A stretch of 64,000 nt of DNA from Sulfurimonas sp. endosymbiont of Alviniconcha boucheti. Its GTDB lineage: Bacteria > Campylobacterota > Campylobacteria > Campylobacterales > Sulfurimonadaceae. This document shows, in pieces, positions 1 to 22,276 of the stretch. Made by a program: the position numbers and the translations under genes. Under the pieces are notes generated by a model. It worked only from the letters and a program-made list of their open reading frames with translations, was not told where the DNA came from and did no database searches. The DNA lies in NCBI GenBank assembly GCA_021766785.1, contig JAICBP010000084.1:150352-214351 (forward strand), in the 5' to 3' direction. Each line of letters opens with the position of its first letter. Position 1 is the stretch's first letter.

Positions 1-957
1 GATGAAGTAAATTTATGGTCAGTTTTTGAGAGAGATATTTTCCCTTTTTATGCAGATGGAACTACTCTTATTTTAGATAAAATTAAAAATAAAACCAAAG
101 CAATAACTAGAAGAAAAACTGAATCTGCAAAAAGTAGAAAAGAATCAGATTTAGATACTATAAATACAGAAATAGAAGCATTGTTGACGGAGATTAAAAC
201 AACTGCAAATAATTTTTTAAAAAAGCATTTTTATGAAAATAATGATGTCATAAAAATAGATTTACAATTTAAGAAAAAATTCACACTTCAAAATATAAAT
301 AAGAATTTATGGGAAGATGGGAATGACCCAATAAGACATAGTGAACTTCATATTAAGTTAGTTGTTGAGCAATTTATGGAAGATGATACTTGGAAGCCAC
401 TAGAGAGGGTTCAGTCATTTTTAAATGAAGCACAGCTTACTAGGATTGCCATTGCTATCCGTATAGGTGCATTAAGAGCAAGAGTTCAACAAGGTGTAGA
501 TTTTAAAATACTTGTTTTGGATGATATGCTAAACAGTCTTGATATGTCAAATAGAGTAGATGTAATGAGAATAATTTTAAATAAAGAGAATAATCCAGAA
601 TTACAATATTTTGATACTTATCAAAAAATTATTTTAACTCATGACAAAGGATTTTTCAATCTTCTTAAAAGACATACAAATGATGAGCAATGGGTGTATT
701 ATAAATTTACAAAAGATGAAACTAAAAATGAAGCACCTAAAGTTAAAAAAGATTTAACACATATGCAAAAAGCTCAGAAATATTTTGATGAAGATGAGTT
801 TGATGCTTGTGGGAATGAACTCCGAAAAGAAGCAGAAAATATTTTTACAAATTTTTTAGACCCTGAGATGAAAAATGTCAAGGATGAATTTAAAGCATTA
901 TCTAAAAAAATAGAAAAAGTATATCATAATTACTACATGCTAAACACAAAAATTTAA
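1..957 (+). CDS. SMC/Rad50-like ABC-type ATPase, C-terminal part (5' end outside window; ends at a premature stop)
   Basis: Frame 1 is open from base 1 (DEVNLWSVFERD...), so tracked ORF 181..957 is only the first in-frame TTG. ABC-signature-like LNEAQLTRIAIAIRIGAL, Walker B/D-loop KILVLDDMLNSLD, H-loop IILTHDKGFF. A K/E-rich coiled-coil-like stretch precedes them. Family call from motifs only. Confidence 0.6.
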   Translation, partial: DEVNLWSVFERDIFPFYADGTTLILDKIKNKTKAITRRKTESAKSRKESDLDTINTEIEALLTEIKTTANNFLKKHFYENNDVIKIDLQFKKKFTLQNINKNLWEDGNDPIRHSELHIKLVVEQFMEDDTWKPLERVQSFLNEAQLTRIAIAIRIGALRARVQQGVDFKILVLDDMLNSLDMSNRVDVMRIILNKENNPELQYFDTYQKIILTHDKGFFNLLKRHTNDEQWVYYKFTKDETKNEAPKVKKDLTHMQKAQKYFDEDEFDACGNELRKEAENIFTNFLDPEMKNVKDEFKALSKKIEKVYHNYYMLNTKI

Positions 958-1255
958 AAAAATTTTTTAATAATCATTTAACTTTGGATATTAAAAAATA
1001 AGGAAGAAGATATGATGTATAATGATGACATTTATATCAGGAAAAAACTATTAAAGCTACGACAAACTTGCATAATTTTTTAATCACTCAAAACAGAATA
1101 CCAAAAGAAGATATAGAACATACAAAGAGATACTTAACAGAGTTTTAAACTCTGCTTCCCATCATAGTGACAACCCTTTACATAGACAAGAGTTAAAAAA
1201 TGCAATTAATCATATGATAGTATTAAAAGAATTGTTAGAAAATGAAACGAACTAA
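958..1255 (+). pseudogene. Frameshifted 3' remnant of the preceding ATPase gene, with a HEPN-like R-x6-H tail
   Basis: The reading frame hops between all three frames at A/T homopolymer runs (KKFFNNHLTLDIKK*, MMYNDDIYIRKKLLKLRQTCIIF*, FFNHSKQNTKRRYRTYKEILNRVLNSASHHSDNPLHRQELKNAINHMIVLKELLENETN*). The last piece has no start codon and carries RVLNSASH. Confidence 0.45.
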
Positions 1256-1322
1256 ATTCACTAAAATAAATTAATCTATTTTTTGTTATAATACAGATAT
1301 AAAACTAATAAAGAAGATTCAA

Positions 1323-1505
1323 ATGGCAGTTAAACACATAAATGAAAATGCAAAAGAAGAGAGTGGTATTTTGCTTTCAGGTAGTGATGCAACAAAAGTT
1401 TTTTCTAAGATTTATATAAAAAATCTTATGGAAAAAGGATATATTCCTGCTGATGATTTTTCCAAACAAGCATTACCTGCAAAAGGTATAATTATTGCAA
1501 AGTGA
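1323..1505 (+). CDS. hypothetical small protein
   Basis: 60-codon ORF preceded by a TGnTATAAT-like element (ttgttataat, about 1283-1292). No recognisable motifs. Confidence 0.3.
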   Translation: MAVKHINENAKEESGILLSGSDATKVFSKIYIKNLMEKGYIPADDFSKQALPAKGIIIAK

Positions 1506-1569
1506 TTTTATATAAAAGTACAGGTTATTATGATAAAATACTTGTACTTTAAAAATAAGGATATTGATA

Positions 1570-1758
1570 ATGCAAACATTAACAATAAATATTCAGAATG
1601 AGACTTTAATGGAAAAAGTTTTATGGATGCTAGAGTATTTTAAAAATGATGGATTAGAAATATCTTCCAAAGAAGATGTTAAAGATTTAAAACTATTAAA
1701 AGCGACAAGAGATGAAGAGAAAGTATCTTTTGAAAGTTATTTAAAAAATGAAAATTGA
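1570..1758 (+). CDS. putative type II antitoxin (partner of the RelE/ParE remnant)
   Basis: ATG at 1570 lies 8 nt after taagga. The small acidic protein overlaps the downstream toxin-like ORF by 11 nt, the typical TA arrangement. A related 28-codon fragment (MQNIAIQVQDDYISDF...) occurs at 41592-41678. Confidence 0.5.
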   Translation: MQTLTINIQNETLMEKVLWMLEYFKNDGLEISSKEDVKDLKLLKATRDEEKVSFESYLKNEN

Positions 1759-1962
1759 AATTAGAAAAAGTGCTATTAAAGACTTAAAAAATATTTCAGA
1801 GCCATTCAAAACTAAATTGCATAACAAAATTTTAGAGCTAAAAAACTTACAAATTTTGAACCAGCATATAGACTAAGAGTAGGAAATTATAGAATTTTAT
1901 TTGATCTTTCAGATGAAATAATTATTATCGTTAGAGTTTTACATAGGCAAAGTAGTTACTAA
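1748..1962 (+). pseudogene. RelE/ParE-family toxin, frameshifted
   Basis: N-terminal piece MKIEIRKSAIKDLKNISEPFKTKLHNKILELKNL stops at 1876. The C-terminal piece in the +1 frame, NFEPAYRLRVGNYRILFDLSDEIIIIVRVLHRQSSY*, carries the hallmark YRLRVGNYRILF...V.HR..Y of RelE/ParE toxins. Confidence 0.7.
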
Positions 1963-2093
1963 AAGATATGGCAAAACCTCGTAGCCGATAAATGTCCTAG
2001 AGGTTATTTATCAGCTAAAGTTAGTCGTTGTAAGCACAGACAAACTTTTTCTAAAAATTAACTATTAAATAAAATAAAAAGAGAGAATAATAA

Positions 2094-3377
2094 ATGGATT
2101 TTATATTAAGTTCTTTTACACCAGACATAGTTTTAAACATTGTATATAGTTCCTATATAGAAGATTATTTAATATATTTTGCATTGTTATTAAGTGGATA
2201 TATCGCAATAACTTATTTTTTAGGATATTTAATAGGTAAAATACCTTATATTAATAAAGTTTTCAATTTTAAAAAAATTTTATCATTTTTTATAATTTTA
2301 CCATTTGTGATTATATTAGTAAAAATAAAACTAAATCTTGATTCATCAAATATATTTTTAGAGAAATTCTTATTTATAACTATATTTTTAAGTTTATCTA
2401 CATTATTGTTTATATATGCAGGAACAAAAGGATTATTACAAAATAATTACGGATTAATTAGATTATGTATTGATTATATTTTTGCGATTAATATTATAAT
2501 TCTTTCAAGTCTATACTATTATAAAACACAGGCAAATAATAATATTAACATGGTTACAAAATTAATTAAAAATGATATACTTAAAAAGATAAAGTATTTA
2601 CAAGATACAGATGATACTGATTATATACTTGCAAAATTAATTGTAAATTATTATGTACAATCTATTAATAATTACACAGATAAATTAAAGAAAAAAGAAA
2701 AAAAGATAATCAATAATTTTAATACTAAAATTATTGATTATGATAAGAGATATACTGAGTTATCTGAAAAAATAACCACTTCAAATCAATTGATTTCAGA
2801 TCTTGAATCGACTTATAAAAATAAAATTAAAATTGTTGATAAAGAAATAGATGAAGAAAAATTAAGACTAAAAGCAATATATGAAGAATGGAAAAATAAT
2901 GTTAAAAGCAATATTAATAATTTAGATAAATTATCAAAAAAATATAAGTTTGAGATTGAAGCTTTAGAGAATAATAAAGATTTAATTACTCATTTACAAA
3001 ATGAATTAAAATTAATAGAACGAAAGAACTCTCAATTAAATATTAAATTATTAGAAGTAAATAATTTAATTTCTAAAAATCATAATGATATTGAAAGTAA
3101 AAATAAGTTATTGAAAGAATTATCTGACAATGTAAAAAAAAATAAAATAGATATAAATTCAATAAATACAATAAGTTCCAAGAATACTATTAATATTAAT
3201 GCACAAACAAAAGAAATTGACAAAATTAAAACTATTCAAGTTCAATTAAACAAAAATAAAACAAGTCTTGATTTAATTAAAGTAAAAATAGATACCGCTA
3301 ATAAAATAATCAAGAAAAAAGAAAATAAGAACTTAATAAAAGAAGATAACAGTTCAACTGTTAAAAAGAGCTTATAA
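2094..3377 (+). CDS. membrane protein with long C-terminal coiled-coil (function unknown)
   Basis: 427 aa. The first ~140 aa contain about four hydrophobic helices. The remaining ~290 aa are K/N/I/E-rich heptad-like sequence. Extremely AT-rich coding region. Confidence 0.55.
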   Translation: MDFILSSFTPDIVLNIVYSSYIEDYLIYFALLLSGYIAITYFLGYLIGKIPYINKVFNFKKILSFFIILPFVIILVKIKLNLDSSNIFLEKFLFITIFLSLSTLLFIYAGTKGLLQNNYGLIRLCIDYIFAINIIILSSLYYYKTQANNNINMVTKLIKNDILKKIKYLQDTDDTDYILAKLIVNYYVQSINNYTDKLKKKEKKIINNFNTKIIDYDKRYTELSEKITTSNQLISDLESTYKNKIKIVDKEIDEEKLRLKAIYEEWKNNVKSNINNLDKLSKKYKFEIEALENNKDLITHLQNELKLIERKNSQLNIKLLEVNNLISKNHNDIESKNKLLKELSDNVKKNKIDINSINTISSKNTININAQTKEIDKIKTIQVQLNKNKTSLDLIKVKIDTANKIIKKKENKNLIKEDNSSTVKKSL

Positions 3378-3525
3378 CAAATACTAGGAGAGAGACAAGT
3401 GAAAACCCAATTTTAGAGAATGCTTCACTTGCCTTTGATGTTTATAATATCCCTAAAATTCAAAAAAATTGCACTTGATTTTAGAATTGGCATATTACCA
3501 TCTAGTGAGAAGTCATATCTGTCTA

Positions 3526-5112
3526 TTAGTCTCTCTGCTTTCCTACAAAGAAACCACCTGCCATACCAAGAGGCACAACAGTAGTATAAAACAGAAGTCT
3601 ATCACTTAATTCACTAACAAAACTAAGACATAAAGCAAAAAACATTACTAAAGATACAAGTGTAAAAGAGCCGCTTCCAGCAAATACCATAGCAAGCAAC
3701 GGAAGAAAGACTCCTGCTACTACAAGAGAGAGTAAACGCCACAATTTTATAACAGCAAAATTTTCATAAAGTAATCTTTTTGTTCGTTGGAGTTGGTACT
3801 TATTTTCTTGAAATGTATCAAGGGTTCTAGTATCTTCATAAGTAAAAAAAAGTTGCATAAGTGCCCCTAACATTCCCATAGCTATAAGAGGAGTAACCGC
3901 ATCACTCAAACTAAGTAAAGAACTTAAGAGTGCAAGTAAAAAGATGCCCACATAAGCAACACCAAAAAACTTTAAGTTTGTTGTGATTCTATTCCATGAT
4001 GGGCGAGCTTTTATACGGTAAATCATTGCTTGAGCATAGATACCATAAGTACCAACAGCTAAAGTAAAAGCTTCGACTACTAAACGTACAATGGCGTTTA
4101 CTTTAAAAAAATATATCGCAACAACCCCACTCATAAGAGCGACAAAGAGACCAAGTGCAGCAGCTTCACGACTTAACCAAGAACTCTTAATATTTTTCAT
4201 AGCAGTCATAGCTAAAAATGGACGACCAAGATGAAGAGCCGAGAGAGGAAGTCCTAAGAGAGCTGGAAGCATCACACAAAGAGCCATGATAAAGTTCGTC
4301 TTCTCAAAACCAAAGAGACTCATAATATCACCTAAAAAGAGTACTAAAAAGCCACCAAGAGAGATCTGAGTAAGTATAGTCATAAAAACAAGAGGAATCT
4401 CTTTATGAGCAGGTTTGAGTATATGCTCATCCATCTCTTTCATATTTTCTGGAAGATTCTCTGGAAGTGTATATCTGGTTGTAGAGTTTGTAATACGAGC
4501 ATCAGGTAAAAATGGCATATTTGCCTGCTTATCTATCTTTTCACTCAACCACTCTTCTATATTTACTGTCTCAATCTCTATAGCTCCTGCTGGACATGCT
4601 TGCACACAAGCTGGAGACTGTCCTACATCTAAACGCTCATGACACATATGACACTTTGTGACAATATTACGCTCTTCATGAAAGACTGGCACACCATAAG
4701 GGCAGTTCCAAGTACAGTACTGGCACCCTATACAAGTCTCATCATCATGTACAACAATTCCTGTCTCAGCAATTTTAATATAAGATTCTGTAGGACAACC
4801 ACGAAGACATTCTGGATCTATACAGTGGTTACAGCTCATAGAGTTAAGTATCTGCGTGAAGGCAGGGAAGTCACCTCCCTCCATCTCACCAACACGGCGC
4901 CATTTTATATCTGCAGGATTATTGTTCTGCTCATTACATGCCACCTCACAACATCTACACCCAACACAAGCAACAGCATCAAAATGAAAACGGTACTGTT
5001 CACCCTCTTTAAGTTTTGGAATATCGATAGAGTAAGAGCCACACTGCATACCTGTATCTGCCTTGTGATCTATAAAACTCTCTAAAGGTGTCTGCATATA
5101 ATTTATCTCCAT
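3526..5112 (-). CDS. fusion of a four-cluster 4Fe-4S ferredoxin domain (DmsB/NrfC-like) with a DmsC-family membrane anchor
   Basis: Cys motifs CVGCRCCEVAC, CNHCIDPECLRGCP, CIGCQYCTWNCP, CHMCHERL...CVQACP. About 8 TM helices follow, with the DmsC-type LHLGRPFLAMTAMKNIKSSWLSREAA. No Tat or Sec signal, and no molybdopterin subunit nearby. Confidence 0.8.
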   Translation of the reverse strand: MEINYMQTPLESFIDHKADTGMQCGSYSIDIPKLKEGEQYRFHFDAVACVGCRCCEVACNEQNNNPADIKWRRVGEMEGGDFPAFTQILNSMSCNHCIDPECLRGCPTESYIKIAETGIVVHDDETCIGCQYCTWNCPYGVPVFHEERNIVTKCHMCHERLDVGQSPACVQACPAGAIEIETVNIEEWLSEKIDKQANMPFLPDARITNSTTRYTLPENLPENMKEMDEHILKPAHKEIPLVFMTILTQISLGGFLVLFLGDIMSLFGFEKTNFIMALCVMLPALLGLPLSALHLGRPFLAMTAMKNIKSSWLSREAAALGLFVALMSGVVAIYFFKVNAIVRLVVEAFTLAVGTYGIYAQAMIYRIKARPSWNRITTNLKFFGVAYVGIFLLALLSSLLSLSDAVTPLIAMGMLGALMQLFFTYEDTRTLDTFQENKYQLQRTKRLLYENFAVIKLWRLLSLVVAGVFLPLLAMVFAGSGSFTLVSLVMFFALCLSFVSELSDRLLFYTTVVPLGMAGGFFVGKQRD

Positions 5113-5172: not shown

Positions 5173-5268
5173 TTAATCATCTAAATCTTCTTTATCCATA
5201 ACAAAGCCCACCATTAATAAACCAAGAACAAAGAGACTTACTGCTCCAATATAAAAGTAATTTATCAA
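5173..5268 (-). CDS. possible 31-aa hydrophobic peptide
   Basis: TTG start overlaps the TGA of the upstream gene (TTGA) and lies 5 nt after AGGAG. Sequence (M)INYFYIGAVSLFVLGLLMVGFVMDKEDLDD. Too short for the ORF track. Confidence 0.3.
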   Translation of the reverse strand: MINYFYIGAVSLFVLGLLMVGFVMDKEDLDD

Positions 5269-5762
5269 ACTTTCTCCTTCTCTTTTGCCATAGCGAGTAA
5301 AGCAGTTTTACCTTTTTTTGAGATAAATGCAGAATTTTCAAAATAGTATGCATTATCTCTATTTTGAATAAAAACACCCTCTTCTAAATTTATCACTTTA
5401 AGAATTGTATCCCACTCTATCACTTTCTCTTGAGTATGGATCCCCTCATTATCTATTGTAAAATTTACTTCCAAATTTTTTGGAGTATTTTTTTTATAAA
5501 AACGTTGTAGTATTAGTTTTCTAAAATACCACCTACCATAATACCAATATATAACAAGAAAGGTAGAAATGAATAGTATTCCATAACTATTATGCTTCAA
5601 TGTACCAACTATACCAAACTGAACAAGAGCTACAAAAAACCATCCTATGTAGCGTTTATTGGAGTGTCGCATATCGTAGTCATAATAGAGCTTACTTGTT
5701 TTAAGTGCAAGCTCTTTGTTCCACATAAAACTAACTTCTATACTCTTAGACATGCTCTTCAC
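5265..5762 (-). CDS. YcxB-like membrane protein (two TM helices plus a bPH-like domain)
   Basis: 165 aa. A central TM hairpin is followed by EVNFTIDNEGIHTQEKVIEWDTILKVINLEEGVFIQ..., resembling the YcxB family. Overlaps the upstream ORF. Confidence 0.5.
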   Translation of the reverse strand: MKSMSKSIEVSFMWNKELALKTSKLYYDYDMRHSNKRYIGWFFVALVQFGIVGTLKHNSYGILFISTFLVIYWYYGRWYFRKLILQRFYKKNTPKNLEVNFTIDNEGIHTQEKVIEWDTILKVINLEEGVFIQNRDNAYYFENSAFISKKGKTALLAMAKEKEKV

Positions 5763-6351
5763 ACTCCTCTATCATTAATTCACTTCTCTCTATGCACCCT
5801 GCATTCTCAAGCTCCTCTAATAGTTTGCTTGTTTGAATATAAAGTGCATCATATACACCTCTGTTTTTAGCATATAAATTACTCTGCTTTTTACCATACC
5901 AGTAAGCAATTGCTACTGTTGAGGCAAATATAGTATATATCAAGGACTGCCACTCTTTTAAATTTAAAAGGACTATAAAATACTGAACAGAAAAAAGAAC
6001 AAAAAATTCTATTGAAAAGATGATAACAAGGGTAGCACTCTGTTCGAAATCAAGTGTATATTTTTCTAACTCTTTAAGCTTTAGCAAATTTTCATTAACT
6101 TCTTGTGCTTTTACTTTACAATCTTCTTTTAAATCATCTATTTTAATATCTCGAAGATGAATATTTGAGAGATTATACTCCACATTTGTCTGCATATAAT
6201 CTTCAAGTAGTTGAGGATTTGCATCAAGAATCTGTAGTATCTCCTCTTCGCTTAACCTTTTTTTTCCTGCAGCTCTTTGAACATCCTGCATAACAAGATC
6301 ATAAAGTCCAATAGTTTTTATCTCTTTAGCAACCCTTTGTAAGTTTATCAA
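5746..6351 (-). CDS. hypothetical membrane protein
   Basis: 201 aa with a soluble charged N-terminal half and two TM helices. Same strand as, and immediately downstream of, the oxidase genes. The start is uncertain (TTG at 6351). Confidence 0.5.
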   Translation of the reverse strand: MINLQRVAKEIKTIGLYDLVMQDVQRAAGKKRLSEEEILQILDANPQLLEDYMQTNVEYNLSNIHLRDIKIDDLKEDCKVKAQEVNENLLKLKELEKYTLDFEQSATLVIIFSIEFFVLFSVQYFIVLLNLKEWQSLIYTIFASTVAIAYWYGKKQSNLYAKNRGVYDALYIQTSKLLEELENAGCIERSELMIEECEEHV

Positions 6352-6411: not shown

Positions 6412-8067
6412 CTACTCTTCTTCTAGTTTGTAAGATGCACTCTTATCTTTTGATGGCAAGAAGATTCCAACAACTCCTTTAATACCAACACTCATAACAA
6501 TGTTGTACAAGAAAATTGCCCAAGCAAGAAGTAACATACTGCCAAAGATAGCTGCAAAAATCATCTCAGGATTGAACTCTCCACCTACATAGAGGTGACG
6601 GCGAAGCATTCCATTCAGTCCTGCCATTCCCATAAATGCACCCATACCAATACCACCTATTAAGTGTAACCAAAAGTGAATATTTGAGAGTTTACTTGAA
6701 TATAACTTTGTTCCATTAGTAATAAGTGGCCAGAGTACATAAACAGCACTATACAGTGTCATATAAAGCCCAACAATAAGTGCAATATGAACATGAGCAC
6801 CAATAATCCACTGGGTATTATGTAAAACACGGTTCATACCCATATCTGCTTGAATGATTGCAGCAGGAACAGCTAAACCAAAACCAGATAAACCACCAAG
6901 AAGATACTTTAACTCCATACTCATTTTAAGTGGTCGTGCTTTCCAGAGTGTTACAAGTGTAATAAATAGTGCAAGTCCTTGAGTAAGTAACTCAAACGCC
7001 GTAACCATTTCACCAGAGATAAGTTTCATCATCTCTGGTTGCCCTTGATCACCAAGAAGGTGGTGAGACCATACCATCCAAGAAACAAGAAGCTCAAGCA
7101 TTAATGCAGCACGAGCCACATTTTCCATAAATAGTTTTTGTCCTGTAATTAGGGTAGCAAGTAGATACCAAGAACCAGCAACATATATAAGTACTAAACC
7201 ATCAGCAACAAGATCAAGACCCCACCAGAAGTAATTTTTATATAAAAGTGCGTCTATTGCTGTTACATCAAGTGCATAACCACTTGCATCAAAGATAAGA
7301 TATACAAGTATTAAAACGCCAGCACTTAGAATAACTAGTGCATCTAAAAATGTATCAACTGTACCACGGAAAATCGCAACAACAGGAAGTGCAAGTGCTG
7401 GCTCTTTTGAGTAAGGCTCTTTTCCTCGAAGTTTATTAATAAGATTTAAAAATCCATCAATACCAAAACCAGAGATAAGTAACTCTTTAGTGGTTTTGTT
7501 TTTATGTACACCAACACGAGCAAAAATCGTTGCATAAATATTATAAATGAAAAGAAGTGTACCAACCATAATAAGTGCTACACCAACAATAAATACTATA
7601 CCACCTAGAACATGAAACTGATGAGTATCAGCAGGAAGTGGCCAATAGAGTGTATAAAGTGGTGCATAATTCCATACAAATGCAGCTATCCATGCTAAAG
7701 CAGTCCCTATAGTAATAAACAACCAACTAGCATTAGCAACTTTCACACTGAAAAGTGGTTTTTTTGTTAAAAACGGCACCAAAAATGTAAATGCACCAAA
7801 AACAAGCTGATAAGTTGATCCAAAGATACCTACAATTGGATGCACTGTCATAATAGAGAAAAAATGTTCAGGATGAAAAAATTGATCTGGAATTGGATTT
7901 AATGGGGAGTGTCCCACTTCTACCATCCTCATAATCATTCCTTCAATAGCAACTAAACCATAAAATAAAAACGCCATGACTACAGCACGAAGTGTCACTT
8001 TTTGAAGTGCATTTAAACTTGTATGGTCAAAGTTCGTACCATCTATTAAATTTTTAGTAAAACTCAT
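6412..8067 (-). CDS. heme-copper oxidase superfamily subunit I, NO-reductase-like, with Asp replacing one active-site His ligand (gNOR-type as I recall the naming)
   Basis: 12+ TM helices. Heme His MTVHPIVG. FWWGLDLVADG aligns with WWWVIHLWVEAT of the NorB in this window (H to D). HH pair VWSHHLLG; HxH pair IGAHVHIAL. Confidence 0.8.
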   Translation of the reverse strand: MSFTKNLIDGTNFDHTSLNALQKVTLRAVVMAFLFYGLVAIEGMIMRMVEVGHSPLNPIPDQFFHPEHFFSIMTVHPIVGIFGSTYQLVFGAFTFLVPFLTKKPLFSVKVANASWLFITIGTALAWIAAFVWNYAPLYTLYWPLPADTHQFHVLGGIVFIVGVALIMVGTLLFIYNIYATIFARVGVHKNKTTKELLISGFGIDGFLNLINKLRGKEPYSKEPALALPVVAIFRGTVDTFLDALVILSAGVLILVYLIFDASGYALDVTAIDALLYKNYFWWGLDLVADGLVLIYVAGSWYLLATLITGQKLFMENVARAALMLELLVSWMVWSHHLLGDQGQPEMMKLISGEMVTAFELLTQGLALFITLVTLWKARPLKMSMELKYLLGGLSGFGLAVPAAIIQADMGMNRVLHNTQWIIGAHVHIALIVGLYMTLYSAVYVLWPLITNGTKLYSSKLSNIHFWLHLIGGIGMGAFMGMAGLNGMLRRHLYVGGEFNPEMIFAAIFGSMLLLAWAIFLYNIVMSVGIKGVVGIFLPSKDKSASYKLEEE

Positions 8068-8681
8068 TGTTTACCTCCATTATCTTTACATCCTACAACT
8101 TTTACAAAGTTTTTAACAAGCATTAAATCCTTTTTTCCATCTTCTGAATATTGTGCTGGACCAGAATACTCTGTCGATGTTAAATCAAAAACACCATTAT
8201 GGTTAAATGTCCAAAGAATATCATTTGAATCGAGTATTCCATTTACATCTGTACCAGGATTGACCTGCATCTGTGTTACGAGTGAACCATCTTGACGAAA
8301 AAGTCCAAAGCCATAGACAAGATCTTCACTATGCACATCAAACTCTACTGTCTGCTCACACTGAATTACAACTTGCTTTGGTAAACCTATCCATTTATGA
8401 TCTTTAATCTTAAATTCATATTTTGCATCAGGTGTAATATTGTGTCTATCAATATCCTGCGATACCCATGGAATAGTGTTGTATGTAAAGATGTGATGCC
8501 CTACACCACCTGCAACTAAAAATGCCATATACCAGTAAAATGGTATACGAAAAACCGACTTCCTATCCTCTCTAGTGAGGTTATAACCAAACCAAGCAAT
8601 AACTGAAAGTATCATTGCTGAGTATATAGTATAAGCTACCCAGTGAAAAGACAATAACTCAAGTGAGTTTGTAAATGCCAT
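8064..8681 (-). CDS. oxidase subunit II-like protein (two N-terminal TM helices plus a cupredoxin-like domain) lacking CuA and heme c motifs
   Basis: 205 aa. ATGA overlap with subunit I. No CxExCxxxH (CuA) and no CxxCH motif. AGGAG lies 8 nt upstream of the ATG. Confidence 0.7.
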   Translation of the reverse strand: MAFTNSLELLSFHWVAYTIYSAMILSVIAWFGYNLTREDRKSVFRIPFYWYMAFLVAGGVGHHIFTYNTIPWVSQDIDRHNITPDAKYEFKIKDHKWIGLPKQVVIQCEQTVEFDVHSEDLVYGFGLFRQDGSLVTQMQVNPGTDVNGILDSNDILWTFNHNGVFDLTSTEYSGPAQYSEDGKKDLMLVKNFVKVVGCKDNGGKQ

Positions 8682-8748
8682 TTATTTATCTCCTTATTTT
8701 CTATTCAAACTAAGGTAACATTTTACACAAAACACAAAGTGCATTTAA

Positions 8749-8762
8749 TTGATATATATCAA
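8749..8762. promoter_or_regulatory. Crp/Fnr-type box TTGATATATATCAA upstream of the oxidase operon (minus strand)
   Basis: Perfect TTGAT-N4-ATCAA palindrome. On the minus strand TAAAAT (8725-8720), preceded by TGTG, lies about 30 nt from the box centre (class II geometry). The start codon is at 8681. Confidence 0.7.
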
Positions 8763-8879: not shown

Positions 8880-8893
8880 TTGATATATATCAA
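8880..8893. promoter_or_regulatory. Crp/Fnr-type box TTGATATATATCAA upstream of the norCB-nirS operon
   Basis: Identical 17-nt copy (aattgatatatatcaa plus flank) of the 8749 box. TAAAAT at 8916-8921 is at class II distance. First ORF starts at 8961. Confidence 0.7.
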
Positions 8894-8960
8894 CCTCCTA
8901 ACATTTAAAAGATAATAAAATGCCAATAGTCCAAAAAATTTTATCAATTAGGATGTAGAG

Positions 8961-9293
8961 ATGCTAAATCCAGCAATAATTCGACCAGAGATAGCTTTAA
9001 ATGATTTTTTACCTATCTTTGTTTCATCCTCTTTAGTATTAGTTTTTGGAGGAATTTATGTCGGCATATATACAGCAGTGAAAGTCAAATATCTAAAACC
9101 ATGGGTTATGGTTATAGCTTATGCGTTTTGGACATTAACTAGCTACTGTCTCTATGTCATGGGAAGCTTGATGCATGTAGGATCATTTACTGCGAAGGCT
9201 TTAGTAGTAGCAGCAATAGGACTTTTTTTACTCCCTTTTGCTGTTTACTATATGGAAGATAATGTTCATAAAAGCAATGAACATAAAACATAA
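8961..9293 (+). CDS. hypothetical 3-TM membrane protein, first gene of the nor-nir operon
   Basis: 110 aa, hydrophobic. Stops 10 nt before norC. Confidence 0.55.
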   Translation: MLNPAIIRPEIALNDFLPIFVSSSLVLVFGGIYVGIYTAVKVKYLKPWVMVIAYAFWTLTSYCLYVMGSLMHVGSFTAKALVVAAIGLFLLPFAVYYMEDNVHKSNEHKT

Positions 9294-9303
9294 GGAGAAG
9301 AGA

Positions 9304-9957
9304 ATGGCAAATAAATCTGTTTGGAGTGATAACCGTTTCTGGCAACGTTCAGCAACATGGATCACAGGATTTGCTTCAATACTACTTATTTGGCTAACAT
9401 TTGACACATCAGCACAAATTTCAATGGGTACTGATGAGGATATACAAAATGGGGTCAAAAAGAAAGTTCCAGGAGCAACAGTAATCAACTATAGGATAAC
9501 ATACGAAATGGATGCGAAACGTGGTCATGAAGTCCCTGTAATTGGTGGAAAAGAGAAATTTTTTGGTCGTGATGATTGGAGTGAAGAGGAGGCAGCAGCA
9601 ATGCTTCACTTAGGGAAACTTGGATCACAGGCGAAAAACTGTATGGATTGTCATACTCTACTTGGAAATGGTGCATACTATGCACCTGATTTAACGAAAG
9701 CATGGCTAGATCCAGCATGGGGTCCAGATGGATCAATGCAGGCAATGACAGGGAAGTCAACAAAAGAAGAAGCTATTGCAGAGTTTTTACAACACCCTGA
9801 TCAATATCCAACACATGCTCGTATGATGCCAAATTTAAATATTACAGAGAAAGAAGCTATCGGACTTGTAGCGTTCTTAAAACATATGTCTTCTATTGAC
9901 ACAAATGGTTTTCCAAGAAACTTTGGAAAGATAAAAGGAGCAATCAATGGCAAATAA
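9304..9957 (+). CDS. norC: nitric oxide reductase cytochrome c subunit
   Basis: ATG at 9304 follows AAGGAG. N-terminal TM anchor, one CxxCH (CMDCH). Overlaps norB. Confidence 0.9.
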   Translation: MANKSVWSDNRFWQRSATWITGFASILLIWLTFDTSAQISMGTDEDIQNGVKKKVPGATVINYRITYEMDAKRGHEVPVIGGKEKFFGRDDWSEEEAAAMLHLGKLGSQAKNCMDCHTLLGNGAYYAPDLTKAWLDPAWGPDGSMQAMTGKSTKEEAIAEFLQHPDQYPTHARMMPNLNITEKEAIGLVAFLKHMSSIDTNGFPRNFGKIKGAINGK

Positions 9958-11371
9958 TCATTTAACTTCAGAATCAAAGCAGTTAGCAACTTGGTACTTA
10001 ACGTTTGCTGCTATCTTATTTGGTGCTCAGCTACTTTTTGGTCTAGTTGCAGCTATTCAGTATATTGTACCTGGTTTTTTGTACGGTATCCTTGATTTTT
10101 CAATAGCAAGAATACTCCACATTAATGCACTCGTTGTCTGGATGGTTTTTGCTATGTTTGGTTCTGTTTACTGGTTACTTCCAGATGAGACAGGAATTGA
10201 GACTATTGGAATAAAAGCAGGAAAGCTTGTATATTGGATTTTTGTAGCTGCTATTGTAGTAGTTGTTTTAGTCTATCTCTTTATTCAAATTGGGCCTGCA
10301 TCTGATGCGACTATTTGGTTTATTACAGAGGGGCGTGAATATATAGAAGCACCACGCTGGGCAGATCTTGGTATTGTTGTTGTTGCACTTACATTTGTAG
10401 CAAATCTTTTCCTAACGGGAATAAAAGGTAAACAAACAGGTATTGTTACGGTTCTTATGGCAGACATGATTGCCTTTGCTGGTCTCTATTTAGCAGGTAT
10501 GTTCTTTACAGATAACATCTCAGTAGATCAATACTGGTGGTGGTGGGTTATTCACCTCTGGGTTGAAGCAACTTGGGAAGTTTTTGTTGGTGCTATTGCT
10601 GCTTATGGTTTGATTACTATGATTGGTGCTCATCGTAAAGTTGTTGAGATGTGGTTATGGATCGAAGTTGCTATGCTCTTTGGATCAGGAATTCTTGGTC
10701 TTGGTCACCACTACTTCTGGATCGGAACACCTGAGTACTGGTGGGAAATTGGGGCACTCTTTTCAGCATTAGAACCACTACCACTTGTAGCAATGTTCGT
10801 GCATGTTCTTTATGACTGGGGTAAAACTCAAGGTGCACAAGATGCAAATGGTGATAAAAATTCAGTTATCACAAATAAGCCTGCATTTACATGGTTTGTA
10901 CTTAATGCATTTGGTAACTTTTTAGGTGCTGGTATATGGGGATTTTTCCATACACTACCACAAGTAAACCTCTATACTCACGGGACACAATTTACATCAG
11001 CACATGGACACCTAGCATTCTTTGGTGCTTATGCAACTATTCTCGTTGGTGTTATGTATCTTGCCGTTCAAGGTAAAAATGGTATTAAGGTGATGAAAAA
11101 TACTAAAACATCTATTTGGGCTGTAAGTATGATAAGTGGTGGTGTTATGGGGATGACAGTCTCCTTAACTATTGCTGGATATGTACAAGTACTTGTTTCT
11201 CGTGCACAGATGGGAGCAACTTGGGCTGGATACTTTGATGGTCAAAATGGTTTATGGTTCACACAGGCTATGGATTGGAGACTTATTTTAGGTATTGTTA
11301 CATTTATAGGATTTCTTTTACTTGCAAAAGATTTACTTACAACTGGAAAAGATCCAGTTCATGAAAGATAA
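9947..11371 (+). CDS. norB: nitric oxide reductase large subunit (cNOR)
   Basis: 474 aa, 12 TM. Motifs WWWWVIHLWVEATWE, GHHYFWIG and SAHGHLAFFG are typical of NorB. Confidence 0.95.
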   Translation: MANNHLTSESKQLATWYLTFAAILFGAQLLFGLVAAIQYIVPGFLYGILDFSIARILHINALVVWMVFAMFGSVYWLLPDETGIETIGIKAGKLVYWIFVAAIVVVVLVYLFIQIGPASDATIWFITEGREYIEAPRWADLGIVVVALTFVANLFLTGIKGKQTGIVTVLMADMIAFAGLYLAGMFFTDNISVDQYWWWWVIHLWVEATWEVFVGAIAAYGLITMIGAHRKVVEMWLWIEVAMLFGSGILGLGHHYFWIGTPEYWWEIGALFSALEPLPLVAMFVHVLYDWGKTQGAQDANGDKNSVITNKPAFTWFVLNAFGNFLGAGIWGFFHTLPQVNLYTHGTQFTSAHGHLAFFGAYATILVGVMYLAVQGKNGIKVMKNTKTSIWAVSMISGGVMGMTVSLTIAGYVQVLVSRAQMGATWAGYFDGQNGLWFTQAMDWRLILGIVTFIGFLLLAKDLLTTGKDPVHER

Positions 11372-13240: not shown

Positions 13241-13254
13241 TTGACATAAATCAA
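13241..13254. promoter_or_regulatory. Crp/Fnr-type box TTGACATAAATCAA upstream of the heme d1 operon
   Basis: One mismatch to TTGAT-N4-ATCAA. A perfect TATAAT at 13277-13282 is at class II distance. The predicted TSS near 13289 lies downstream of the first in-frame ATG (13281). Confidence 0.7.
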
Positions 13255-13319
13255 GCTCTTTTTCATTAATACTTCTTATAATGAACCTACAATATATTTT
13301 ACTCAAAAAGAGATTTTGG

Positions 13320-20157: not shown

Positions 20158-20171
20158 TTGATTTGTATCAA
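20158..20171. promoter_or_regulatory. Crp/Fnr-type box TTGATTTGTATCAA serving divergent promoters
   Basis: Perfect palindrome. Plus strand: TGaTACAAT with its hexamer at 20194-20199. Minus strand: TGcTATCAT with its hexamer at 20134-20129. Both are about 30 nt from the box centre. Confidence 0.7.
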
Positions 20172-22262: not shown

Positions 22263-22276
22263 TTGATATTAATCAA
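22263..22276. promoter_or_regulatory. Crp/Fnr-type box TTGATATTAATCAA upstream of the nap operon
   Basis: Perfect palindrome. Extended -10 TGaTATACT (hexamer 22299-22304) at class II distance. napA ATG at 22372. Confidence 0.7.

Follow-up and report, generated by a model that had tools for sequence, protein, structure and literature searches.

A gNOR-type heme-copper oxidoreductase with two active-site aspartates and a predicted Crp/Fnr-type promoter in a Sulfurimonas endosymbiont

The locus described here lies in a 64,000-nucleotide stretch of contig JAICBP010000084.1 (positions 150,352 to 214,351, forward strand; assembly GCA_021766785.1) from the Sulfurimonas sp. endosymbiont of Alviniconcha boucheti. 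This whole stretch is called the window, and all coordinates are window positions. The locus encodes a gNOR-type heme-copper oxidoreductase, and its membership of this family is close to certain. The gNOR family is common in sulfur-oxidising Campylobacterota and has been published together with its signature and hosts, and the window is a further example and a correct rediscovery. It was singled out by an earlier reading of the letters alone (the original prediction), which described a non-canonical heme-copper oxidase resembling a nitric oxide (NO) reductase, placed back-to-back with a canonical norCB. The features at the locus, with the evidence for each, are as follows (aa, amino acids; ORF, open reading frame):

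8064..8681, minus strand: gNOR subunit II, 205 aa (ORF, profile, AlphaFold (AF2) model, Foldseek)
6412..8067, minus strand: gNOR subunit I, 551 aa (ORF, Pfam COX1, profile alignments)
5746..6351, minus strand: third gene, orf201, 201 aa (synteny, homologues, conservation profile)
5265..5753, minus strand: fourth gene, orf162, 162 aa from the ATG at 5753 or 165 aa from a GTG at 5762 (synteny, gene calls)
8749..8762, no strand: Crp/Fnr-type box TTGATATATATCAA of the gNOR promoter (box scan; equivalents in 54 of 73 genomes)
8720..8725, minus strand: candidate -10 hexamer TAAAAT of the gNOR promoter (sequence inference)
8880..8893, no strand: second Crp/Fnr-type box TTGATATATATCAA, of the orf110-norC-norB promoter (box scan)
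8916..8921, plus strand: candidate -10 hexamer TAAAAT of the orf110-norCB promoter (sequence inference)
8961..11371, plus strand: divergent cNOR operon orf110-norC-norB (ORFs; match of NorB to 3O0R_B)

Both gNOR ORFs lie exactly where they had been placed, and they overlap by 4 nt (ATGA), which suggests translational coupling of subunits II and I. The operon extends past the coordinates of the original prediction, as two conserved genes downstream are part of it. In GTDB species-representative genomes, at least 565 stretches were found to encode a relative; genus-level comparisons use the best 80 of these, and synteny was read from 83 loci. Signature residues were counted in a MAFFT alignment of 132 full-length relatives, among which 123 are gNOR members (121 close homologues plus P0241 and P0242). 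The best 80 of the at least 565 stretches are all from Campylobacterota (79-92% identity), plus one contig labelled Marinilabiliaceae, and include Sulfurimonas, Sulfurovum, Nitratifractor, Sulfuricurvum, Sulfurospirillum, Aliarcobacter and Hydrogenimonas. The closest named relatives are from Sulfurovum and Sulfurimonas, with Sulfurovum sp. NBC37-1 at 86%.

Subunit I belongs to Pfam COX1 (E=5e-50) and has an intact heme-copper oxidase scaffold, as originally claimed: the segments MTVHPIVG, FWWGLDLVADG, VWSHHLLG and IGAHVHIAL are all present. Curated models of the aa3, cbb3 and SoxB catalytic subunits score it far under their cutoffs, and the NCBIfam scores are 39 bits for ccoN (TIGR00780; cutoff 583) and 80 for ctaD (cutoff 671). 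A family profile was needed to reach solved structures because a search with the single subunit I sequence matched none of them; the profile, built from six sequences, matched ba3 and mitochondrial oxidases with E=1e-13 to 4e-15 and was aligned to the solved Thermus thermophilus ba3 to obtain ligand equivalences. These PDB E-values do not tell whether subunit I is closer to the B or the A family (an A-family chain scores 3.8e-15, ba3 ~1e-13). The profile alignment gives the following equivalences:

D285 (codon 7213-7215), ba3 H233: first CuB ligand, the His cross-linked to Tyr
D289 (codon 7201-7203), ba3 Y237: the cross-linked Tyr, at the position of cNOR Glu211
H335/H336, ba3 H282/H283: CuB ligands
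H76 (7840-7842), ba3 H72: low-spin heme ligand

H425/H427 (6787-6795) align with the helix-X HxH pair of an A-family oxidase; in the ba3 alignment, gap placement causes an offset here. Subunit I keeps the three heme His and two of the three metal His, and the heme ligands H76, H425 and H427 are invariant in all 123 gNOR sequences.

The remaining metal His is replaced. The original prediction had put an Asp at the position of the first active-site metal His, and the profile-to-structure alignment supports this assignment (D285 = ba3 H233). The proposed residue-for-residue alignment of FWWGLDLVADG with helix 6 of the window NorB is also right; it is supported via profiles, which by transitivity equate D285 with NorB H207, and a direct BLASTP of subunit I against the window NorB was not significant. 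A second substitution, D289 for the cross-linked Tyr, had escaped the original prediction. D285 and D289 are both present in 121/121 close homologues and in P0241 (61% identity) and P0242 (44% identity), and the Asp/Asp signature is confined to three full-length 50%-identity clusters, of which P0241 and P0242 represent the other two. In the superfamily members that come next in similarity, this pair of positions reads H/Y (the oxygen-reductase pattern) or H/N, apart from a single R/Q outlier. Because Asp/Asp is kept in all 123 members, the alignments identify it as a fixed family signature, neither a sequencing error nor a one-off. Subunit I identity stays at 79-92% across Campylobacterota genera while that of subunit II drops to 51-91%, which indicates strong purifying selection on subunit I. 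A pseudogene or degenerate oxidase is ruled out by the intact ORF and the 79-92% identity of subunit I between genera. Subunit I also carries, at residues ~186-225 (window ~7390-7510, minus strand), a conserved segment of ~35 residues between transmembrane (TM) helices V and VI that has no CyoB counterpart in the profile alignment and is probably a periplasmic insertion preceding the D285 helix.

Subunit II consists of two N-terminal TM helices and a periplasmic cupredoxin domain, has no CxxCH motif and matches no model in Pfam or NCBIfam, although 1065 homologues were found. Its profile matches engineered CuA-domain constructs of T. thermophilus ba3 (E=2e-4) and, more weakly, wild-type ba3 subunit II (E=0.16). 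An AlphaFold model built on 41 homologues (mean predicted local distance difference test, pLDDT, 77; a single-sequence model, at pLDDT 47, was unusable) has two N-terminal helices and a beta-sandwich, and its top Foldseek match is the ba3 CuA domain (probability 1.0, target TM-score ~0.6), followed by other cupredoxins and COX2 subunits. The CuA ligand positions are occupied as follows:

Y123: first His position (profile alignment)
S169: first Cys position (profile alignment)
S173: second Cys position (profile alignment)
Q177: second His position (profile alignment)
E180: Met position (extrapolated)

With non-ligand residues at all the aligned CuA positions, no CuA site is possible in the cupredoxin domain of subunit II, which also lacks a heme c motif. 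The earlier description of a partner subunit without redox motif, with two helices and a cupredoxin-like domain, is borne out down to Y123, S169, S173, Q177 and the missing CxxCH. Despite the loss of all CuA ligands, H63, H95, C108 and C198 of subunit II are invariant, and these Cys and His pairs might form a disulfide, or else a metal or contact site that has gone unrecognised.

How electrons could enter such a complex was approached by comparison with the bo3 oxidase of E. coli. The CyoB sequence was confirmed to be identical to 1FFT_A and then aligned to the gNOR profile. The quinol-site residues of bo3 (R71, D75, H98 and Q101) and also R80 align as follows (all by profile alignment):

E42 (7942-7944), bo3 D75: match
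H68 (7864-7866), bo3 H98: match
R47, bo3 R80: match
L38, bo3 R71: no match
S71, bo3 Q101: no match

E42 and H68 are invariant in 123/123 gNOR sequences and not in the non-gNOR representatives of the superfamily. This conservation independently supports the suggestion, already published, that gNOR oxidises quinol; the match to the bo3 site is partial. Another Glu, E359 in TM VIII, is invariant and gNOR-specific and could be part of a proton path. Y301 of subunit I aligns with ba3 Y248, a K-channel-analogue residue. The preprint version of Murali et al. noted that conserved residues might form a proton channel unlike the B-type K channel.

The regulatory region between gNOR and norCB holds two TTGATATATATCAA boxes, which are identical perfect palindromes with centres 131 bp apart, each centred 74 nt from the start codon of its operon (the subunit II ATG and the orf110 ATG). 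On the gNOR side the TAAAAT begins 30 nt away from the centre of its box, with its end 38 nt short of the subunit II ATG, and on the orf110-norCB side it begins 29 nt from the centre; this spacing of box and hexamer corresponds to the geometry of a putative class II Fnr-type promoter. The original prediction spoke of one divergent, symmetric Fnr-box control region shared by both operons. The symmetry and the divergent operons stand, and the sharing does not: there are two separate identical boxes, one per promoter. Since these Crp/Fnr-type promoters are identical and back-to-back, gNOR and cNOR are probably induced together.

The box is also conserved elsewhere. Of the 73 genomes with enough upstream sequence, 54 have a TTGAT-N4-ATCAA box (at most one mismatch) no more than 150 nt ahead of the subunit II start, against a background of 0.017 per 150 nt in the same loci; the box centre mostly lies 57-75 nt from that ATG. 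The orf110-norCB operons of three other loci (L007, L026 and L029) have the same type of box 70-88 nt upstream. Given boxes upstream of both gNOR and norCB, gNOR is predicted to belong, as a conserved member, to a Crp/Fnr-type regulon shared with cNOR. The window contains five perfect boxes, against 0.27 expected by chance. Further Crp/Fnr-type boxes lie at 611-624, 13241-13254, 20158-20171 and 22263-22276; perfect ones stand at 611, ~100 nt upstream of napA and ~68 nt upstream of a 131-aa ORF (20232), and one with a single mismatch lies ~33 nt upstream of a cytochrome c gene at 13281. The boxes suggest one regulon over nap, nir, cNOR and gNOR. No gene for a Crp/Fnr-family regulator was found among ten window ORFs of 173-322 aa, the only ones scanned.

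Downstream of the genes for subunits II and I, the Campylobacterota gNOR operon continues with orf201 and then orf162, four genes in all. In 82 of the 83 loci subunit I is preceded by subunit II, orf201 lies directly downstream of subunit I in 73, and orf162/165 follows orf201 in 56, most absences being on short contigs. Both orf201 and orf162 are also present in cultured Sulfurimonas autotrophica, a metagenome contig of the Joint Genome Institute (JGI) has an arrangement identical to that of the window locus, and both genes are missing at a 61%-identical non-campylobacterial locus (L002). orf201 begins with a TTG start behind its own AGGA ribosome-binding site; its protein starts with a soluble portion, continues through two TM helices and ends in a short tail. 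The conservation profile shows hardly any variation in the first of these helices, which holds a buried Glu, E115 (EKYTLDFEQS-TLVIIFSIEFFVLFSVQYFIVLL). orf201 has 1300 homologues, nearly all of the named ones called 'hypothetical protein', and its counterpart in the Sulfurimonas locus L001 is 64% identical. orf162 overlaps the end of orf201 by 8 nt and has two predicted TM helices and a weak YcxB-like C-terminal domain (Pfam YcxB E=0.009, below cutoff); 162-aa genes are also called in L084 and L086. The accessible gNOR literature was found to hold no description of orf201, orf162 or the conserved gNOR promoter. Both proteins may be extra subunits or assembly factors.

Other genes next to gNOR clusters differ between loci. 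Directly downstream of the 44%-identical subunit I (P0242, the most divergent gNOR representative found), on a short contig, lies a gene with a hemerythrin domain (L003:1793-2188); hemerythrin domains are often tied to NO/O2 sensing or to the repair of iron centres. In the window, the gNOR cluster is followed by a gene for a fused DmsB-DmsC-type iron-sulfur/membrane-anchor protein (3526-5112, minus strand), as is also the case in 13 other loci; S. autotrophica has a 762-aa molybdopterin oxidoreductase next to the DmsBC-type gene. In the window, the DNA beyond the anchor gene (within positions 1-4000) is very low in GC (23-26%) and contains a 427-aa ORF (2094-3377, plus strand) whose C-terminal half is repetitive and Lys/Asn-rich. 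The DmsBC-type anchor appears orphaned in the window, because this low-GC DNA with its 427-aa ORF stands where S. autotrophica has the molybdoenzyme.

On the other side of the promoter region, the plus strand encodes orf110 (8961-9293, a small membrane protein), norC (~9306-9957, with a CxxCH) and norB (9947-11371). The window NorB is canonical: it matches Pseudomonas aeruginosa NorB (3O0R_B) with E=3.5e-95, its helix-6 segment reads WWWVIHLWVE against WWWVVHLWVE, and the H/E/HH/HxH residues are kept. A norCB lies within 8 kb of gNOR in only 4 of the best 80 genomes (from the at least 565 stretches), and the back-to-back placement is for that reason lineage-specific and not a conserved feature of gNOR. 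norCB is divergent from gNOR in L007 and L029, as in the window; in L026 orf110-norC-norB lies upstream of gNOR on the same strand, and in L021 norB does so at a contig end. orf110 (110 aa), for which no family match was found, is conserved ahead of norCB in L007, L026 and L029 (38-85% identity). The rest of the window is a denitrification island, at whose edge the two promoters lie, with nirS, the heme d1 genes (nirJ, a nirF/N-like gene and nirDL-type genes), cobA, a major facilitator superfamily (MFS) transporter, napAGHB and further genes.

The gNOR family has reportedly been traced also to Hemp and Gennis 2008. Murali et al. 2024 (PMC11214002) presented gNOR as the first heme-copper family with an active-site His replaced, by aspartate, with a subunit II that is a cupredoxin without CuA ligands and with a preference for sulfidic habitats; they proposed NO reduction with a possible quinol donor and cited a bioinorganic mimic of the site that reduces NO. 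In PMC8756737 (2022), Sulfurimonas, Sulfurovum and Persephonella are given as gNOR hosts, citing Sievert 2008, and Table A4 of that paper lists 'D' at the cross-link Tyr position of gNOR. By 2026, gNOR hidden Markov models are in routine use, and only cNOR, qNOR, bNOR and eNOR count as experimentally verified (PMC13592168). The original prediction, which mentioned an Asp-substituted family named gNOR and knew of no biochemical characterisation, agrees with PMC11214002 and PMC13592168. A His-to-Glu change of a heme ligand reported for gNOR in a 2019 preprint (10.1101/592808) occurs in none of the 123 sequences examined.

Placement of the window protein in the B-family-related gNOR clade has indirect support from the published hosts, a subunit II that is closest to ba3, and the three 50% clusters with Asp/Asp. 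Public databases name subunit I 'cbb3-type cytochrome c oxidase subunit I', and 'cytochrome c oxidase subunit 1/2' is also among the public names; with a ccoN score of 39 bits against a cutoff of 583, gNOR is systematically mis-annotated there as a cbb3 oxidase. The ccoN score and a partner that is a cupredoxin, not a cytochrome c, place it outside the cbb3 oxidases (C family). It is likewise distinct from cNOR, having no significant pairwise similarity to the window NorB, an Asp at the first His position and a subunit II without CxxCH.

What reaction gNOR carries out can be framed as follows. The reading we favour, with a probability of roughly 0.65, is that gNOR acts as a menaquinol-dependent nitric oxide reductase, expressed from a class-II-type Crp/Fnr promoter and co-induced with cNOR. 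Quinol would bind close to the low-spin heme of subunit I, in a pocket that includes Glu42 and His68. Electrons would leave this heme (His76/His427) for the high-spin heme (His425) and go on to a non-heme metal held by Asp285, His335, His336 and probably Asp289. At this heme/non-heme metal site two NO would be converted to N2O. The metal would probably be iron, as a two-His/two-carboxylate site is expected to favour a hard metal such as iron over copper, and subunit II would serve as a structural cupredoxin without a redox centre.

Several points weigh against this proposal. Only 2 of the 4 bo3 quinol-site positions are matched (R71 is L38 and Q101 is S71 in gNOR). In most genomes gNOR does not adjoin nir or nor genes, and in the Sulfurimonas metagenome-assembled genome L001 and in S. 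autotrophica it stands beside assimilatory-type nitrate/nitrite genes. No recognisable box lies within 150 nt of subunit II in 19 of the 73 genomes, and a Crp/Fnr box cannot tell an NO signal from an O2 signal. NO reduction by gNOR itself rests on inference, as no gNOR has been purified or knocked out.

One alternative keeps NO as the substrate and changes the purpose: gNOR would be a sulfide-tolerant or high-affinity detoxification backup that does not conserve energy and perhaps uses a donor other than quinol. The coexistence of a canonical cNOR under an identical promoter fits such a role, as do the concentration of the family in sulfidic habitats (PMC11214002) and the partial match of the quinol site, and a figure legend in PMC11214002 gives conserved proton channels for eNOR, bNOR, sNOR and nNOR, not for gNOR. 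It overlaps the favoured explanation so far that sequence cannot separate the two, but the conservation of E42 and H68 together with a redox-inert subunit II favours a quinol donor, and the invariant, gNOR-specific E359 in TM VIII could belong to a proton path; we regard this backup role as unlikely.

Of comparably low probability is the idea that the altered site performs other chemistry, such as NO dismutation, N2O reduction or turnover of sulfur or peroxide species. For other divergent superfamily members, roles as an NO dismutase and as an N2O reductase have been put forward (PMC11214002), and gNOR biochemistry is absent from the literature (PMC13592168). The gene neighbourhood could point the same way: gNOR is usually unlinked to nir and nor, a DmsBC-type quinol-interacting module is next to it in 13 loci, with a molybdoenzyme in addition in S. 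autotrophica, and a hemerythrin gene follows a distant gNOR member. Yet the window gNOR lies in a denitrification island and has the promoter architecture of cNOR, the carboxylate at the Tyr position mimics cNOR Glu211, and NO reduction by a synthetic site mimic is cited in Murali 2024 (PMC11214002).

That gNOR is a respiratory oxygen reductase, as public annotation implies, is highly improbable: Pfam COX1 membership, the public names (cbb3-type or cytochrome c oxidase), the intact heme ligands and the Y301/Y248 equivalence speak for it, but in all 123 members the cross-link Tyr is Asp289 and the cross-link His Asp285, there is no CuA or heme c to take electrons from cytochrome c, the NCBIfam scores are 39 against 583 (ccoN) and 80 against 671 (ctaD), and loss of the Tyr is held to be incompatible with O2 reduction (PMC11214002). 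A two-His/two-carboxylate site lacking the Tyr cross-link would rule out normal O2 reduction. No Tyr, no third His and no CuA are thus the features on which the O2-reductase reading was rejected.

Returning to a menaquinol-dependent NO reductase, a broader version of this reading can be put forward, tentatively and by analogy. In Campylobacterota, gNOR might be a four-component membrane complex, with orf201 and orf162 as extra subunits or as dedicated metal-insertion or assembly factors for the two-His/two-Asp site (compare NorQD/NorE for cNOR), working as a sulfide-tolerant menaquinol:NO oxidoreductase under a dedicated Crp/Fnr-type regulator.

With its function inferred, gNOR is one of the NO-reductase families producing N2O in those sulfidic marine and vent settings where Sulfurovum and Sulfurimonas dominate, and it is the only heme-copper family known with an active-site His replaced. 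Its spread is far wider than reported earlier, with at least 565 stretches in GTDB species representatives against 156 GTDB genomes. New here are the count of Asp/Asp invariance, the gNOR-specific E42/H68, the four-gene operon specific to Campylobacterota and the conserved Crp/Fnr box. What interest is left is modest and concerns gNOR as an uncharacterised enzyme, its conserved accessory genes and its promoter. Operon and promoter are handles for genetics in cultivable hosts such as S. autotrophica or Sulfurovum sp. NBC37-1.

Comparison with known systems places the window locus in the gNOR family: it shares the Asp at the first His position, the Asp at the cross-link Tyr position, a cupredoxin without CuA, the hosts and the sulfidic habitat, and it has candidate quinol residues with a partial match to the bo3 site; no defining feature differs. 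With ba3 of T. thermophilus (1EHK, 3S8F), subunit I aligns over helices VI-XII (E ~1e-13) and shares the HH pair, the heme ligands and Y301/Y248, and the ba3 cupredoxin domain is the best structural match of subunit II. ba3 differs in its H233-Y237 cross-link, three His on CuB, CuA and a cytochrome c donor, whereas gNOR has D285, D289 and no CuA. The subunit II of ba3 has one TM helix, and that of gNOR here has two. With cNOR (P. aeruginosa 3O0R and the window norCB), to which its homology is only remote, gNOR shares the proposed reaction and a carboxylate four residues past the first metal ligand (E211 or D289), but cNOR has three His and a Glu on FeB and a heme c subunit, while gNOR has two His, the Asp residue or residues and a cupredoxin subunit; in the literature cNOR is related to C-type oxidases and gNOR to B-type. 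qNOR (Geobacillus stearothermophilus 3AYF) resembles gNOR in the proposed quinol-dependent NO reduction without a redox-active second subunit; it is, however, one fused chain from the cNOR lineage, carries three His and a Glu on FeB and is not closely related to gNOR. The bo3 oxidase of E. coli (1FFT, 7CUB) belongs to the A-family O2 reductases, its CuB/Tyr site is complete, and its R71 and Q101 are unmatched in gNOR, but its subunit II is likewise a cupredoxin without CuA, and its D75 and H98 correspond to E42 and H68.

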